Part shown: in pieces, positions 6,643 through 32,465 of the stretch
Layout: every line of letters starts with the position of its first letter
Numbering within the stretch: position 1 is the first letter of the stretch
Origin: an uncultured Ectothiorhodospiraceae bacterium
GTDB lineage: Bacteria; Pseudomonadota; Gammaproteobacteria; CAYQDX01
Assembly (NCBI GenBank): GCA_964416345.1
Contig: CAYQDX010000003.1
Span: 1 to 41,282, forward strand
Direction of reading: 5' to 3'
DNA length: 41,282 nt
Notes under the pieces: model-generated
Database searches by the model: none
What the model saw: only the letters and a program-made list of their open reading frames with translations
Told to the model about the DNA's origin: nothing
Made by a program: the position numbers and the translations under genes

Positions 6643-7383
6643 GTGGCTGTCTACTTCGTCTCCGACCTCCATCTCGACGAGGAGCGTCCGGCCATCACGG
6701 CGGTATTCGTCGACTTTCTCCGACGGTGTGCCCGAGAGGAGGCGGATGCGCTGTATATCCTCGGGGACCTGTTCGAATATTGGCTCGGCGACGATGATCG
6801 AGATGCGACCAAGGATACGGTGCGGTCCGCGCTGGCCGAGGCGACCGGAGGCGGCCTGCGCGTGTATGTCATGCGCGGTAATCGAGATTTTCTGCTGGGG
6901 CAGACCTTTGCTGCACAGACCGGCGCCCGCCTGCTGGATGAGCCCTACCAGCTGGATCTATACGGCACCCCTACCCTGCTGATGCACGGCGACCTGCTGT
7001 GCGTAGACGACCTACCGTATCAGAGATTTCGCCGCAAGGTCAGGAGCGCGGCCTGGCAGGCCGCTTTCCTCGCCAATCCCCTGGCCAAGCGGGAGCTGCA
7101 GGTGCGCGGCCTTCGGGACGAGAGCCGAGTCGAGGCGCGGGCCAAGTCCAGCGACATCCTGAACGTGAGTCCGGCCGCAGTCGAGGAAGTGATCCGCCGC
7201 CACGGCGTCAGCAGGCTCATCCACGGCCACACTCACCGCCCAGGTGTCCATCGGCTACAGATCGGTGGCAACAGGGTCGAGCGTATCGTGCTGGGCGCCT
7301 GGTACGTCGAGGGCAGTGCTCTGCGCTGCGACGCGCTCGGATGCCGTTCCGTAGCCGTCAGCGCTCCTGATTCGGCGACCTAG
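6643..7383 (+). CDS. lpxH: UDP-2,3-diacylglucosamine diphosphatase
   Basis: Metallophosphoesterase motifs SDLHL, GDLFE, GNRDF, MHGD, IHGHTHRP. Confidence 0.95.
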   Translation: MAVYFVSDLHLDEERPAITAVFVDFLRRCAREEADALYILGDLFEYWLGDDDRDATKDTVRSALAEATGGGLRVYVMRGNRDFLLGQTFAAQTGARLLDEPYQLDLYGTPTLLMHGDLLCVDDLPYQRFRRKVRSAAWQAAFLANPLAKRELQVRGLRDESRVEARAKSSDILNVSPAAVEEVIRRHGVSRLIHGHTHRPGVHRLQIGGNRVERIVLGAWYVEGSALRCDALGCRSVAVSAPDSAT

Positions 7384-27439: not shown

Positions 27440-28333
27440 ATGGACATCCCCAGCTTGAGGGCCTTCATAGCAGTCGCCGAGCACGGCTCGTTCTCCGCCG
27501 CCGGCGCGGAGCTGCATCTGACCCAACCGGCAGTGAGTAAACGTGTCGCCCAGCTGGAGCTCGGCCTGGGCCAGCGGCTGTTCGATCGGGTCGGCCATCG
27601 AGTGCTCCTCACCCGCGCGGGAGAGGTGCTGCTGCCAAGGGCGCGGTGCATACTCCAGGAGATCTCCGACACGCGCCGCGTTCTCGCCAACCTCAGGGGG
27701 CTGGTGGACGGCAGCCTGTCCATGGTCACCAGCCATCACATCGGTCTTCGCCGCCTGCCGCCGGTGCTGCGGCTGTTCACCGAGCGTTACCCACAAGTCA
27801 GCCTGCGGGTGGCTTTCCTGGATTCCGAGGCGGCGTGCGTCGCGGTGGAGCGGGGCGAGGCAGAGCTGGGCGTAGTGACGCTCCCCAGGGCACAGGTTGG
27901 ACGTCTGTGGGCGACGCCCCTGTGGGAGGACCCACTGGAGATCGTCGTCGCCGCCAATCACGCGCTAGCGTGCAAGTCGCGAGTGACCTATGCGGACCTG
28001 AACGACTACCCGGCCCTCTTGCCAGCCGTGGGAACCTACACGCGGGAGGCGCTGGAGGAGGCACTGCTGCCCCACGGAGTGGCCTTGCAGGTCGGTCAGC
28101 CGATCAACTACCTCGAGACCATACGCATGATGGTCTCGGTGGGTCTGGGATGGAGCGCCTTGCCCGCGTCCATGGTCGAGGCTCCCATATGCGCCCTCCA
28201 TCTGCCGGGCTTGCGGGTCTCTCGCATGCTGGGGGTGGTCCAGCATCGAGACCGGACCCCTTCCAACGCCGCTCTCGCCCTGCGGGAGTTGCTCGGCGCA
28301 GTCACACGGCCAGGAGAGGGCTGCCACGACTAA
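27440..28333 (+). CDS. LysR family transcriptional regulator, divergent from leuC
   Basis: HTH GSFSAAGAELHLTQPAVSKRVAQLE plus substrate-binding domain; AT-rich divergent gap to leuC. Confidence 0.93.
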   Translation: MDIPSLRAFIAVAEHGSFSAAGAELHLTQPAVSKRVAQLELGLGQRLFDRVGHRVLLTRAGEVLLPRARCILQEISDTRRVLANLRGLVDGSLSMVTSHHIGLRRLPPVLRLFTERYPQVSLRVAFLDSEAACVAVERGEAELGVVTLPRAQVGRLWATPLWEDPLEIVVAANHALACKSRVTYADLNDYPALLPAVGTYTREALEEALLPHGVALQVGQPINYLETIRMMVSVGLGWSALPASMVEAPICALHLPGLRVSRMLGVVQHRDRTPSNAALALRELLGAVTRPGEGCHD

Positions 28334-28871
28334 ACCGGGTCTTCAGGAATTCCATCTGATCGGCCAGGATACGTCTATTCGACAGTACCAGGTATTCGGC
28401 TCGATTGGGGACGAACGGTACGGCCAGGAGGGGCATGCCTGCCTCTTCGGGCGTCCGTCCGCCTTTGGTGGCGTTGCACGGCTTGCAGGCGCTGACGATG
28501 TTAGACCAGGAGTCGTGCCCGCCTCGAGACAACGGCAGCACGTGATCACGGGTGAGCTGATACTGCTGGAATGTACCGCCGCAGTACATGCACAGGTGGC
28601 CGTCGCGCAGGAAGAGGTCCCGATTCGACACTGGGGGCACGCCCGCCTCGCGACCGAAGCGGTGACGGCGACCGCGCACGGCGACGATGGAGTTGACCTC
28701 CACCACGGAGCGCTCGCCGGTATGGCGGCAGATGCCGCCATGCACCGGAAACATGTGGCCGCCGGCGGTCCAGGCGATCTGGCCCCGCACGTATAGGCAC
28801 ACTGCTTCCTGCCACGTGATCCACACTACCGGCTGACCGGTGACGTCCAGTCGCAGGATCTTGGGTCTCAT
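28302..28871 (-). CDS. HNH endonuclease (McrA/HNH_5-like with Zn-binding cysteines)
   Basis: CMYCG...LTRDHVLPLSRGG...NIVSACKPCNATKG; start at ATG 28871 behind a GGAGG-like RBS. Confidence 0.88.
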   Translation of the reverse strand: MRPKILRLDVTGQPVVWITWQEAVCLYVRGQIAWTAGGHMFPVHGGICRHTGERSVVEVNSIVAVRGRRHRFGREAGVPPVSNRDLFLRDGHLCMYCGGTFQQYQLTRDHVLPLSRGGHDSWSNIVSACKPCNATKGGRTPEEAGMPLLAVPFVPNRAEYLVLSNRRILADQMEFLKTRFSRGSPLLAV

Positions 28872-28974
28872 GGGGCCTGCGCCCTCCCTCCGCTCGATGG
28901 GCATGCGCCCGCCGAGCGCAGCGCGTCCGTGGCCCGAGTGATGGGATAGGCTGCCGCGCCGGGGGTCGGGAGGG

Positions 28975-29009
28975 ATTATAGCGGCAGCGTTGGAGACAAC
29001 CAACGCTGC
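28975..29009 (-). promoter_or_regulatory. Putative sigma70 promoter of the HNH gene overlapped by a palindrome
   Basis: Minus strand TTGGTT-N17-TATAAT (-10 at 28975-28980, -35 at 28998-29003); inverted repeat GCAGCGTTGG-N6-CCAACGCTGC at 28984-29009. Confidence 0.45.
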
Positions 29010-29093: not shown

Positions 29094-29561
29094 TTACATC
29101 AGAGGCCCGCCAACGTGCCCTTCTTCACGCGGAACGAAGCCCCATCCATAGAGACTGTCCCTCCGCCTGGCTGCCTTGGGTCGGTGCGGCTCGGCGACGA
29201 ACTGGGACAGCTTGATTCCCGCCAGAAAGTCGAACAGCTGCTGACTGAGATTGTGCCACAGCTCATCGGTCTCACGTCCCACTGCCTCCTGGCCTTGGTC
29301 GCTTCCGTCGTCGACTGCCGTAATGATGTCTGCAACTGATATATCGGCCGCCGACCGCGCCAGACGGTAACCACCGCCTGGACCGCGCGTGCCGCGAACT
29401 AGGCCCGAGCTGCGCAGACGCGCAAACAGCTGCTCCAGATAGGATTGGGAGATCCCTTGACTCTCGGAGAGGTCTGCCAGCGGCAGAGCCCCCTTCCTGT
29501 CGTGCAACGCCAGGTGCAGCATCGCCGTGACGGCGTAGCGACCCTTTGTGGAAAGCTTCAT
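29094..29561 (-). CDS. Rrf2 family regulator, IscR-like but lacking the Fe-S ligands
   Basis: MKLSTKGRYAVTAMLHLAL, QGISQSYLEQLFARLR, RGPGGGYRL, LWHNLSQQLFDFL match IscR; no cysteine in the 155-aa protein. Confidence 0.88.
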   Translation of the reverse strand: MKLSTKGRYAVTAMLHLALHDRKGALPLADLSESQGISQSYLEQLFARLRSSGLVRGTRGPGGGYRLARSAADISVADIITAVDDGSDQGQEAVGRETDELWHNLSQQLFDFLAGIKLSQFVAEPHRPKAARRRDSLYGWGFVPREEGHVGGPLM

Positions 29562-29761: not shown

Positions 29762-29887
29762 AGCCGCCGGTATGCCGTTGGCGGTGCCCGGCTCTGCACC
29801 GAGCACATCGGTAAACCACCGCGCCAGCGCCCCTCGCACCGTTCCACAGACTCGTGCGCGAAATCCGGAGCCCACCTGGAGAACCAA

Positions 29888-30085
29888 ATGGCAGCAGTCG
29901 ACGACGAGCTCTTGGTCAAGGCATTTCTGGTCCGGTCCCCGGCCGAAGCCTTCGAGGACTACGCCCACGCCGAGATTGACCGTCTGAAGGAGACCGAAGC
30001 GGATTTCGATGCCGCCCTCTACGACAAAGCCGTGCAACTGGTGCTGACTCGCCTTGAAGGGGTAGATCAGGGAACGGGCTCATGA
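29888..30085 (+). CDS. Small acidic hypothetical protein (65 aa), coupled to the downstream ATPase
   Basis: GGAG RBS before ATG 29888; coding-like GC3; MAAVDDELLVKAFLVRSPAEAFEDYAHAEIDRLKETEADFDAALYDKAVQLVLTRLEG...; ATGA overlap with the next gene. Confidence 0.78.
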   Translation: MAAVDDELLVKAFLVRSPAEAFEDYAHAEIDRLKETEADFDAALYDKAVQLVLTRLEGVDQGTGS

Positions 30086-32313
30086 TTATCAAAAACTTGC
30101 GTGCCGAAAACGTGCTGAAGTATGCCCGCTTGGAGCTGACCAATCTGCCGGAGCGGGCCACCATAGCCGTCACCGGTCCCAATGAATCCGGCAAGACTGC
30201 CGTCGGCGAGGCCATCTGCCTCGCCTTATTTGGACGCACCTACGCCAATGCCCCCGCCGAGCTCGTGAGCAACATCAAGTGGGGCGAGTCCAATGCTTCC
30301 CTGGAGCTGGAGCTGGTGGGTGCAGACGGCCAGACCTACGTCATCACACGGTTCTTGGACATCGACGGAAACCACCGGGCCCGCCTGGCGCGTGCCGACT
30401 CCGGGGAGCTCCTGGCGCAGGGACCCGACCCGGTACGTGCAGCCGTCGAGCGCGTCGTCGGCTACGACTATGACGAATACGTTGATTCCTTTTATCTTGC
30501 GCAACGCGAGAGCAGCCTGCCCCACCCTCAGAGCCAGACCGCCAAGACGTTGCTGGGTATGTCTCGACTGGAGACGGTGCGCCATGATCTGGAGAGTGAG
30601 CTGAGTGGCGAGCAACACGTCATGGCGGACCTGGACGCCCGGTCCGCCCAAGTGCAGACCCAACTTGCAGAGCTCGCCGTCGACCCCACGGCGCTAGACA
30701 TTCTGCAGGCGCAACGGGAGACGGTCGCGGCGGAGGTGGAATCCCTCGCACGTGTCACGGCAGCCCTCGCGCAACGTCGAGATGACATCAAGGATGCGTG
30801 GGCAACGCTGCTCAACGCAGCACCGCACGCCGGCGCGGTGGACCACAGCAGCGGCATCGGGGACTGGAGGGAAATTGCCGATGGTCTGGACGCCGCCGTG
30901 GACGACCTGAGTGCCGCGTGCGCGCAAGTTCCGGATGCGGGCGCCTGCTCGGTTTCCGGTTTGCGCGCCTGGGCGGCGGATCTGCACCAGCATTTGACAC
31001 GCTTCCAGGACCTAAGCTCAAGGCTCGCCGAGGAACGCTCGGCGCTTGAAGGCTGGCTGGAGGGCTCCGCCGACGGCGGTCAGGCCGCCGAGCAGGCGGC
31101 GCTCAGCGCGGACTTGGAGAGTGCCCAGGCGAGCCAGGGCCGCAACGGAATGCTCGGCTGGCTCCTGGTAGTCGTGGCGCTGCTGGGCTGGGGCACTTGG
31201 CTGACGGTGAGCTATGCACCGGCGCACGGCGTGAGTCAGTCCCTGCAGGCGCTGCTGGCTCGGTACGTCCCCGGCTGGGGCGGGCAGACTCTAATGCTGC
31301 TGGCTGCAGTCAGCGGAGTGCTGTCCCTGGCGGCAGTCTGGCTGCTCAAGCTCAGTGCCCGCAACCGCGAGCGCGCCATCGAGCTGGGAGAGCAGGCCGT
31401 CACGCTGACCTCTAGGGTAGCTGCGCAACGGGCGTTGGTCTCCGGGCTGACAGCGCTGGAAGATCTCTCGACGCCGGCGCAATTGCAGTGGCTCCGTGAA
31501 TCGGAGGACTCGGCCGTCCAAGGCATGATCGAGCCATTCATTGCGGAGGGCGGCGCCACTTTGTGGGAGCCGGATGCCCTCGGTCCTTTCCTGGATAAGC
31601 TGCATGAGGAGCTCCAGTCGTTCGAGGCGCAGCAGTTGAGCCCCCTGTTGGAGCGCATCGCGGGCCGCATCGACGATCGGCTGGCGGAGTCGGACGAACA
31701 AGAGAGGGCCCTTGCACGCCTGGACAATTCCATCGGAGAGGAGCAGGCACGTCGCGCGGAGGCCCAGGAGCTGAGCGCCGAGCTCGGCGCAATCGAGGCC
31801 GGCACCGACCAGTCCCGGGCACGGGCGCGCGTCCGGGAGACGGCGGTGGTGCTCATCGATGGAGCCTATAGACGCATTCAGACCCACTTCAACCGGGAGG
31901 TTCACGACCTCCTCGGCAAGGTCGTGCCTCTGCTGACCGGTGGCCACTATGAATACTTGCGTCTGGGGGAATCCCTGGAAGTGGAGGTGTTTGCCAAGGA
32001 AAAGAATGACTTTGTGAAGATGGAAAGTCTCTCCAGCGGCACCCAACGCCAGCTCTCGCTGGCCGTGCGGCTGGCGCTTGCACAAGCACTGGTGGCCGCC
32101 TCGGCCCATGGACGCCAGTTCTTGTTCCTGGATGAGCCGTTTGCGTTTTTCGACCACGCCCGCACGCGACACACCCTGGAGACCCTTCCTAGGTTGAGCA
32201 GTGAGCTGTCTCAGATCTGGGTCGTGGCACAGGAATTCGAAAGGTCTGCGAAATTCGACCTCGCCGTGAGCTGCGCCACGGAATCCGACTCCCTCGCCGT
32301 TGACGGGCCGTAG
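30082..32313 (+). CDS. Rad50/SbcC-like (SMC superfamily) coiled-coil ABC ATPase with two central transmembrane helices
   Basis: Walker A GPNESGKT, Q-loop FYLAQRE, signature LSSGT, Walker B/D-loop FLFLDEPFAFFD; heptad-rich arms; hydrophobic helices at about aa 357-378 and 404-422. Confidence 0.85.
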   Translation: MIIKNLRAENVLKYARLELTNLPERATIAVTGPNESGKTAVGEAICLALFGRTYANAPAELVSNIKWGESNASLELELVGADGQTYVITRFLDIDGNHRARLARADSGELLAQGPDPVRAAVERVVGYDYDEYVDSFYLAQRESSLPHPQSQTAKTLLGMSRLETVRHDLESELSGEQHVMADLDARSAQVQTQLAELAVDPTALDILQAQRETVAAEVESLARVTAALAQRRDDIKDAWATLLNAAPHAGAVDHSSGIGDWREIADGLDAAVDDLSAACAQVPDAGACSVSGLRAWAADLHQHLTRFQDLSSRLAEERSALEGWLEGSADGGQAAEQAALSADLESAQASQGRNGMLGWLLVVVALLGWGTWLTVSYAPAHGVSQSLQALLARYVPGWGGQTLMLLAAVSGVLSLAAVWLLKLSARNRERAIELGEQAVTLTSRVAAQRALVSGLTALEDLSTPAQLQWLRESEDSAVQGMIEPFIAEGGATLWEPDALGPFLDKLHEELQSFEAQQLSPLLERIAGRIDDRLAESDEQERALARLDNSIGEEQARRAEAQELSAELGAIEAGTDQSRARARVRETAVVLIDGAYRRIQTHFNREVHDLLGKVVPLLTGGHYEYLRLGESLEVEVFAKEKNDFVKMESLSSGTQRQLSLAVRLALAQALVAASAHGRQFLFLDEPFAFFDHARTRHTLETLPRLSSELSQIWVVAQEFERSAKFDLAVSCATESDSLAVDGP

Positions 32314-32465
32314 TGGGAGGTCAGGGCTTGTGAATGGAACCGAAAGCTGCCGGTTTGATGACGACGATCTCTTCGATGCGTCCCGACCCCTCGGCTGAAC
32401 GCCGCGGCCGGCTCGGCCGGCGCAGCGACGAGATCACTCGGGCAGGCTCCTAGGGGCCCACCGCA

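Follow-up and report, generated by a model that had tools for sequence, protein, structure and literature searches.

What does a Rad50-like ATPase do when the gene beside it encodes no nuclease and the far end of its coiled coil looks made for a membrane? The question is raised by two adjoining genes at positions 29888..32313 of a 41,282-nucleotide stretch of DNA (contig CAYQDX010000003.1 of assembly GCA_964416345.1, hereafter the window) from an uncultured Ectothiorhodospiraceae bacterium, the first encoding a protein of 65 amino acids (aa) and the second an ATPase of 743 aa. Among the central machines of chromosome biology are the SMC and Rad50 proteins, and the hinge or zinc hook at their far end is key to the way they hold DNA. 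Here we have a vertically inherited family with a predicted membrane hairpin at that end and a 65-residue putative subunit in the place where a nuclease would be. The pair is a real, widely conserved two-gene family found across several bacterial phyla; it is of the Rad50/SMC-like kind, carries no specific name in the databases and literature searched, and has a function that we infer. The best overall explanation, which we regard as evenly poised between right and wrong, is that it is an undescribed module forming an ATP-gated membrane clamp for DNA, regulated by the small subunit.

The larger protein is, with near certainty, an ABC ATPase of the Rad50/SbcC clade. General family models touch it lightly: the Pfam families AAA_23, AAA_21 and SbcC_Walker_B pass their cut-offs narrowly, SMC_N stays under its own (32.5 bits, cut-off 40), no hinge family is found, and the NCBIfam models of Rad50, SbcC and RecF all lie far under their cut-offs, the best being PRK01156 Rad50 with 62 bits against 847, and TIGR00618 sbcC reaching 44.5 bits against 478.5. 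A profile of the family, made from an alignment of 74 members, matches Methanocaldococcus jannaschii Rad50 (5f3w) at E 9.9e-47 and Escherichia coli SbcC (6s6v) at E 4.7e-12, and over the N-terminal lobe this profile aligns with residues 24-215 of M. jannaschii Rad50 at 111 bits. The fold tells the same story. In the AlphaFold 2 (AF2) model of the 743-aa protein (mean predicted local distance difference test score, pLDDT, 88.0; predicted template modelling score 0.53) a beta-rich head is assembled from aa 2-137 and 623-741, and a Foldseek comparison with the PDB ranks Rad50 chains at the top (7zr1_C at 1.2e-18, then 5dny, 7yzp and 3av0), followed by Smc5/6, condensin, MukB, LmuB and JetC. An earlier interpretation of the locus, made without database searches (the sequence-only reading), had described a split ABC head with Walker A and Q-loop at the N-terminus and signature and Walker B at the C-terminus, and both the motifs and the Rad50 matches agree with it.

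Residues K38, S651, D684 and E685 are invariant in all 74 members, and the Q-loop position 141 is glutamine in 72 of them; because its catalytic residues are invariant or nearly so, the head appears fit for ATP binding and dimerisation. It differs from Rad50 at one telling position. Where Rad50 has its switch histidine, the first His of the motif 'THH', the aligned column 717 of the family holds glutamine in 70 of 74 members, glutamate in 3, proline in 1 and histidine in none, and the hydrolysis step of the head is probably altered.

Between the two lobes run long antiparallel helices (160-378 and 401-619 in the AF2 model, pLDDT 76-97), which give each arm about 190 residues, and the apex of this coiled coil is a hydrophobic two-helix hairpin, not a zinc hook. 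Kyte-Doolittle (KD) 19-residue windows above 1.6 are confined to aa 356-379 and 401-426, so that the two hydrophobic helices placed by the sequence-only reading at about 31150-31215 and 31291-31348 are recovered at 31147-31218 and 31282-31359. Central hydrophobic segments with KD of at least 1.5 are present in 74 of 74 members, resolved as two clean segments in 38, as the same two regions in fragmented form in 32, and as a single or merged segment in 4. In the 38 clean cases the loop has a median length of 19.5 aa and a mean of 0.76 lysine plus arginine residues, whereas the 15 aa on the outer side of each helix carry means of 3.8 (ahead of helix 1) and 3.4 (behind helix 2). With flanks rich in these residues and a loop poor in them, the charges follow the positive-inside pattern, as expected if the hairpin has its two ends on the cytoplasmic side. 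The prediction that the central helices cross a membrane is based on hydrophobicity, charge distribution and conservation. The 743-aa protein contains no CxxC, its four cysteines lying at 46, 280, 289 and 731, and the midpoint lacks the motif as had been noted before; 4 of the 74 members do have a CxxC, in places that are not homologous. On the returning arm the final ~30 residues are strongly conserved (L591, G594, F603, N604, P616 and T619). There is also a short-arm subfamily of ~600-645 aa (P0006-P0010, P0013, P0014, P0016, P0017, L083, L085, G019 and others), in which the outgoing arm is shorter by ~100 residues, the returning arm lacks the corresponding stretch, and head, hairpin and small partner are kept.

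The small protein belongs to a separate family, and its gene is the partner of the ATPase gene. A hidden Markov model of it, built from 56 loci, was sought in the 700 nt 5' of the ATPase gene at 83 loci (the window's own, two from a genome search and 80 from the species-genome scan described below), and the small open reading frame (ORF) stands directly upstream of the ATPase in 80 of them, its stop overlapping the ATPase start in 52 of the 80. The three misses are L065, with just 45 nt of upstream sequence, and L080 and L084, the most divergent members. In the window the overlap is an ATGA at 30082-30085, and the ORF coordinates (29888-30085 and 30082-32313) bear out the coupling that the sequence-only reading had seen; conservation of the small ORF beside homologs, which that reading had named as a check, is found as well. 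Searched against 1.84 billion representatives, the small-protein profile finds 307 relatives at E ≤ 0.001, of which 153 reach E ≤ 1e-10. All of the best 150 of the 307 are 52-137 aa long, so that this set includes no protein fused to a nuclease or to another domain.

A conserved core can be read from the family alignment (F13, F22, E29, R32, F40-D41, A48, L51-V52 and L56), with the pattern F..EF...E..R...FD...Y..AV.LV...L also present in the window copy, and the alignment suggests two helical segments joined by a turn rich in proline and aspartate. The small protein matches no Pfam family, its best hit among PDB sequences has a meaningless E of 0.17, and nothing better than E 0.016 is found among the PADLOC models. 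It had been described as acidic, which is true of the window copy (isoelectric point, pI, 4.2) and does not extend to the whole family: among 40 aligned members, the pI is below 6 in 28 and above 8 in 8.

How widely the pair occurs was followed in several collections. A scan of one genome per species (185,579 genomes) gave 571 pattern matches, 544 of them in stretches encoding a relative, from which 80 loci were kept, and a word-indexed search gave 21 relatives. By record title the kept loci belong to Gammaproteobacteria/Chromatiales, Binatia (19), Magnetococcales (10), Phycisphaerae/Planctomycetota (7) and a few others. The relatives bear generic database names ('AAA family ATPase', 'exonuclease SbcC', 'RecF'), and the module is undescribed in the full-text literature searched, a search that lay outside the ABC-ATPase classification of Krishnan et al. 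2020, where the clade may be named; within that scope the sequence-only reading was right to call the system undescribed.

The module lies on the chromosome and has for the most part been passed on vertically. In a sample of 400 genomes of the window's class, 35 carry the ATPase family at E ≤ 1e-40 (including the unpublished G295; G247 was unscored), in single copy in every carrier. Among the 11 module-holding taxonomic families sampled more than once, 10 have it in every sampled genome (f13 in 3 of 3; f58, f73, f77, f102, f120, f144, f145, f181 and f186 in 2 of 2 each), the exception being f161, with the module in G160 and without it in G324. A FastTree phylogeny of the 74 members places the Binatota (19) in one clade and the Planctomycetota (7) in another, each with support 100, and the five phylum labels need four changes on it, the minimum, against a mean of 24.7 over 200 label shuffles; several long branches, including the window's, are less certainly placed. 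One ATPase labelled Desulfobulbaceae (L014) nests in the gammaproteobacterial clade, from either a mis-binned contig or a transfer. At E ≤ 1e-10, tblastn turns up no hit among 72,556 plasmids and 50,697 phages, and 2.9 million viral contigs hold only 4 weak partial matches and no full-length copy. The window itself is core chromosome, with leuBCD, asd, fimV, truA, trpFBA, folC and purF upstream of the module and an RND pump and aat/ate downstream. Core context, single copy, consistency within families and a tree that follows the phyla together fit a housekeeping pair and not a defence island.

No nuclease gene accompanies the pair. From 65 loci (a set that leaves out the window's own locus, L005 and 16 of the 19 near-identical Binatia loci) we took 333 ORFs, each 110 aa or longer and no more than ~3.3 kb from the pair, and ran the 116 nearest on either side against Pfam. 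Metallophos, the domain of SbcD and Mre11, occurs in 0 of these 116, which agrees with the sequence-only reading that no SbcD, Mre11 or YhaO gene is adjacent and shows that homologs are not routinely paired with a nuclease that this locus has lost. Other exonuclease domains occur in 3 of the 116 (RNase_T once, RNB twice), each lineage-specific, and the flanking ORFs otherwise encode varied housekeeping functions (lysA, ValRS, RsmE, PFK, PRK, ribonucleotide reductase, acyl-CoA dehydrogenase). All-against-all clustering of the neighbours gives no third conserved gene, the largest cluster covering 23 of 83 loci, 18 of them from Binatia. Elsewhere in the genomes, SbcD (TIGR00619) is over its cut-off in 39 of the 400 class-sample genomes (including the unpublished G141) and in 10 of the 35 module carriers, every time on a different contig from the module. 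The other 25 carriers have no SbcD match at E ≤ 1e-15, and of five carriers tested at E ≤ 0.001 three are without an SbcD-like match, namely G057 and the two closed single-contig genomes G012 and G379.

The module is none of SbcCD, YhaO/YhaN or the known SMC-like defence systems, though it shares features with all of them. Rad50/SbcC, its best match in sequence (M. jannaschii Rad50) as well as in fold, has the same split ABC head, the same motif order and an antiparallel coiled coil leaving the head. However, Rad50/SbcC carries a CxxC zinc hook where the module's ATPase has its hydrophobic hairpin, and it works with Mre11/SbcD, whereas the module's ATPase is paired with a 65-aa protein whose family has no name. 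Among studied architectures, that of Bacillus subtilis SbcE/YhaN comes nearest. SbcE/YhaN is reported to be an SMC-like ATPase related to SbcC, with a central domain that is hydrophobic and insoluble and without a CxxC; it acts in double-strand break repair and transformation, forms polar foci in competent cells and works with the SbcF nuclease (PMC2811018). The hydrophobic central domain and the absent CxxC are likenesses to the module's ATPase. But the SbcE/YhaN operon includes the YhaO/SbcF nuclease, and the module has no YhaO-type nuclease alongside. At 743 aa the window ATPase is also shorter than YhaN, a protein of ~960 aa.

A degenerate YhaN was considered as the origin of the module and rejected. 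The AAA_27 family gives 14.3 bits on the window ATPase against a cut-off of 22, and it matches 9 of 23 family members weakly, with a best E of 5.5e-4; language-model features from the ESM Atlas place the relative P0007 beside AAA_23/AAA_27 clusters (0.98), which is a lead only. Another contig of the same genome, C234, encodes a 422-aa SbcD-like phosphoesterase (48.8 bits and 1.5e-12 against TIGR00619) overlapping the start of an ATPase that matches AAA_27 at E 2e-74 and 250.7 bits. That ATPase has only the P-loop region in common with the window ATPase (26 bits, E 0.005), and there is no transmembrane-like segment in its visible 799 aa (maximum KD 1.09), the protein being cut by the contig end. 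Since the genome thus possesses a separate YhaO/AAA_27 pair, the module is not a YhaN that has lost its nuclease.

Lamassu LmuB, Wadjet JetC and MADS mad3 likewise combine an ABC head with coiled-coil arms, but in those systems they come with effector or kleisin-like partner genes, and the module lacks both these and a defence-island or mobile context. With the SMC-kleisin complexes Smc-ScpAB and MukBEF the module would share its logic: two heads engaged by ATP, long arms, a constitutive point of dimerisation at the distal end and, at the heads, a small non-ATPase subunit. The differences are that SMC proteins have a hinge where the module has its predicted membrane hairpin, that a ring is putative in the module, and that the small subunit of the SMC complexes is a kleisin, whereas the small protein here matches no kleisin or other Pfam family.

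How might such a module work? We propose that the hairpin would anchor the ATPase in the inner membrane, both of its ends lying on the cytoplasmic side, and that hairpins would probably pair two protomers, as the hook does in Rad50 and the hinge in SMC. The heads would extend into the cytoplasm on arms of up to ~28 nm (~190 residues at 0.15 nm each), with a shorter reach in the short-arm subfamily (~630 aa; 627-643 aa). ATP binding would engage the heads, so that heads, arms and membrane would close as a clamp and keep DNA at the membrane; with glutamine in place of the switch histidine, hydrolysis would be slow and the clamp would stay closed for long. The small protein would be a regulatory subunit seated on the conserved base of the arm (L591 to T619) or on the head, acting like the Rad50-binding helices of Mre11 or like a kleisin. 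The module's task would be of the housekeeping kind: it would tether or handle DNA at the membrane, whether chromosomal or incoming, and would not cut it. This mechanism of a DNA clamp at the membrane we believe to have slightly less than an even chance of being correct.

A bolder form of the idea is that the module represents a third kind of SMC-type ring closure, in which the membrane would replace hinge or hook, the transmembrane hairpins would pair, the ATP-engaged heads would entrap chromosomal DNA against the inner membrane and the 65-aa protein would be a minimal gatekeeper resembling a kleisin or the Rad50-binding domain of Mre11. This is tentative and, in our judgement, rather unlikely; if true, it would give the carrier lineages a dedicated ATP-gated tether between chromosome and membrane. 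The module would be a natural experiment in what a Rad50 head does without Mre11, and it is a candidate for a physical link between DNA and membrane in Gram-negative bacteria. Both partners are small enough for direct biochemistry and structure work.

Several observations weigh against a DNA clamp. The 743-aa protein is acidic as a whole (pI 4.8), and the head columns R101 and Q113, which we take to match the DNA-contact positions of Thermotoga maritima Rad50, are only partly basic, with lysine or arginine in 22 of 74 and 44 of 73 members. The flanking ORFs show no theme of DNA metabolism or repair. A scan of 77 loci with the gamma-type LexA consensus found an exact box upstream in 1 of 77 and a box with one mismatch in 12 of 77, against 4 of 77 same-length in-gene controls; the spacers are not AT-rich and we judge the box not to be enriched. 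Evidence from RNA consists of contigs only, two from the metatranscriptome run X13 that are 100% identical to the ATPase gene (30515-30716 and 31967-32181), neither of which bridges the junction of the two genes; they are a weak hint of ATPase-gene expression, as carried-over DNA may be their source. The missing LexA (SOS) enrichment and repair neighbours would suit a role that does not involve DNA, in which a membrane-anchored, ATP-switched coiled-coil dimer organises the membrane or envelope or senses its state; it might set the spacing or shape of internal membranes or be a mechanical link, with the head as an ATP-driven dimerisation switch only. Such a role would also be consistent with the fact that the only conserved features outside the head are hairpin and arms, with the envelope-type neighbours of some lineages (a PstS-like gene at 6 Magnetococcales loci, a lytic transglycosylase at 2 loci, PspC at 1), and with carriers that by record title include Chromatiaceae, Magnetococcales and Phycisphaerae, all lineages rich in internal membranes. 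Yet these neighbours are lineage-specific and not family-wide, the head is closest in both sequence and fold to the DNA-binding Rad50/SbcC and SMC proteins, and to our knowledge every characterised member of the Rad50/SbcC/SMC clade acts on DNA. We consider a DNA-free role unlikely.

If the module does handle DNA, it might do so as something other than a clamp. It could be a double-strand break repair ATPase of the SbcC/SbcE type that uses a nuclease encoded elsewhere, with the small protein as adaptor; this would be in keeping with the Rad50/SbcC-type head, with the architecture resembling that of SbcE/YhaN, a partner of the SbcF nuclease, with the SbcD-like phosphoesterase on C234 and with the 10 of 35 carriers in which SbcD is over its cut-off. 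But the phosphoesterase on C234 already has its own overlapping AAA_27 ATPase, 25 of the 35 carriers have no SbcD match, and three of the five searched more sensitively have none although the same model detected the YhaO-like gene on C234. Metallophos is absent from the 116 nearest flanking ORFs, and fused longer forms of the ATPase were not found at E ≤ 1e-10, which is weak evidence in the same direction, so that we hold this role to be quite improbable. The sequence-only reading had pointed out that SMC-like ATPases with small partners also form defence systems, and one can picture a Lamassu- or Wadjet-like system against phages or plasmids in which foreign DNA ends lead, through the hairpin, to membrane damage and abortive infection. 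PADLOC does give partial matches to mad3 (E 1.4e-18, best over aa 599-716), LmuB (3.2e-12), AriA and PbeC; LmuB and JetC are among the Foldseek matches; the window has a gene for an HNH endonuclease two genes upstream of the module, and 2 loci have a patatin-like phospholipase gene downstream. The PADLOC matches, however, are limited to the common ABC head, no LmuA, JetD or other effector gene goes with the pair, no neighbour cluster extends across lineages, and the core-chromosome context, the single-copy vertical inheritance that is consistent within 10 of 11 families and the absence from plasmids and phages (with just the 4 weak partial matches on viral contigs) all speak against it. Defence is highly improbable in our view, and the earlier framing as defence, together with an output at the membrane, is not supported; the head, the hairpin, the conserved partner and the lack of an adjacent nuclease are the parts of that interpretation that stand. 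It had also seen the ATPase as a possible DNA-end sensor, and such a role is hypothetical. The features of the locus are collected in Table 1.

Table 1. Features of the two-gene locus, in window positions, with the basis of each assignment.
Feature	Position	Strand	Basis
Shine-Dalgarno-like GGAG	29878..29881	+	6 nt 5' of small-ORF ATG, read from sequence
Small partner gene, 65 aa	29888..30085	+	ORF list and family alignment
Rad50-like ABC ATPase gene, 743 aa	30082..32313	+	ORF list, Pfam, AF2, Foldseek, profile
N-terminal head lobe, aa 1-159	30082..30558	+	Pfam AAA_23 aa 6-96, SMC_N aa 3-49
Walker A GPNESGKT, aa 32-39	30175-30198	+	motif position
Q-loop YLAQRE, aa 138-143	30493-30510	+	motif position
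Outgoing coiled-coil arm, aa 160-355	30559..31146	+	AF2 helices 160-198, 204-252, 259-281, 292-327, 334-378
Predicted transmembrane helix 1, aa 356-379	31147..31218	+	KD 19-residue windows 1.6-1.9
Predicted periplasmic loop, 21 aa, aa 380-400	31219..31281	+	between the two hydrophobic helices
Predicted transmembrane helix 2, aa 401-426	31282..31359	+	KD windows up to 2.39
Returning coiled-coil arm, aa 427-619	31360..31938	+	AF2 helices 401-459, 464-473, 477-488, 497-619
C-terminal head lobe, aa 620-743	31939..32310	+	Pfam SbcC_Walker_B aa 631-702, AAA_21
Signature LSSGTQRQ, aa 650-657	32029-32052	+	motif position
Walker B/D-loop FLFLDEPFAFFD, aa 680-691	32119-32154	+	motif position
Q717 at Rad50 H-loop histidine position	within 32218-32238	+	alignment to Rad50 'IITHH'

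Some neighbours deserve mention in their own right. At six Magnetococcales loci (L067, L070, L071, L074, L075 and L082) a gene for a PstS-like periplasmic binding protein (PBP_like_2) begins right where the ATPase gene stops or only a few bases away, and in that lineage it may be a third gene of the operon. The large patatin-like phospholipase genes downstream of the module belong to two gammaproteobacterial loci, L017 (7898-10423, 842 aa) and L033 (10794-13379, 862 aa). In the window, the HNH gene is an HNH_5/HNH ORF of 233 aa at 28302-29003 (-) with its domain at aa 138-192; it overlaps the end of a LysR-type gene (27440-28333) and is not conserved beside the module in other loci. A calcineurin-like phosphoesterase of 246 aa at 6643-7380 (+) adjoins a cyclophilin gene 23 kb from the module; it is presumably of the LpxH type, judging by synteny, and is not the partner of the ATPase. 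Divergent from the small ORF, across an intergenic region of 326 bp, lies a gene for an Rrf2-family regulator (29094-29561, -), which is not a conserved neighbour of the module at the other loci. The sole sigma-70-like site of a promoter scan, at 29648-29620 on the minus strand, is oriented toward this gene, and a terminator scan finds one hairpin-like site within the ATPase gene, fewer than the shuffle mean of 2.1.

Sequencing runs allow the reading frames to be compared with those of close relatives. A related strain (run X3) has 1-nt indels relative to the window at 29767 and 29854, and no indel is among the differences listed for four sequencing runs over 29855-32465, which supports the ATG at 29888 as the start of the small gene and not a longer frame from 29639. 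Among the differences listed between runs and window, 16 inside the two ORFs were checked, most of them from run X3; 7 of 9 in the ATPase gene and 4 of 7 in the small ORF are synonymous. At window position 31868 the codon is TAT (Tyr596) in the window and encodes cysteine in run X1 and in the 90%-cluster representative P0001; the site belongs to a cluster of differences at 31816-31868, and at most of the other listed sites runs X1, X3 and X5 all differ from the window.

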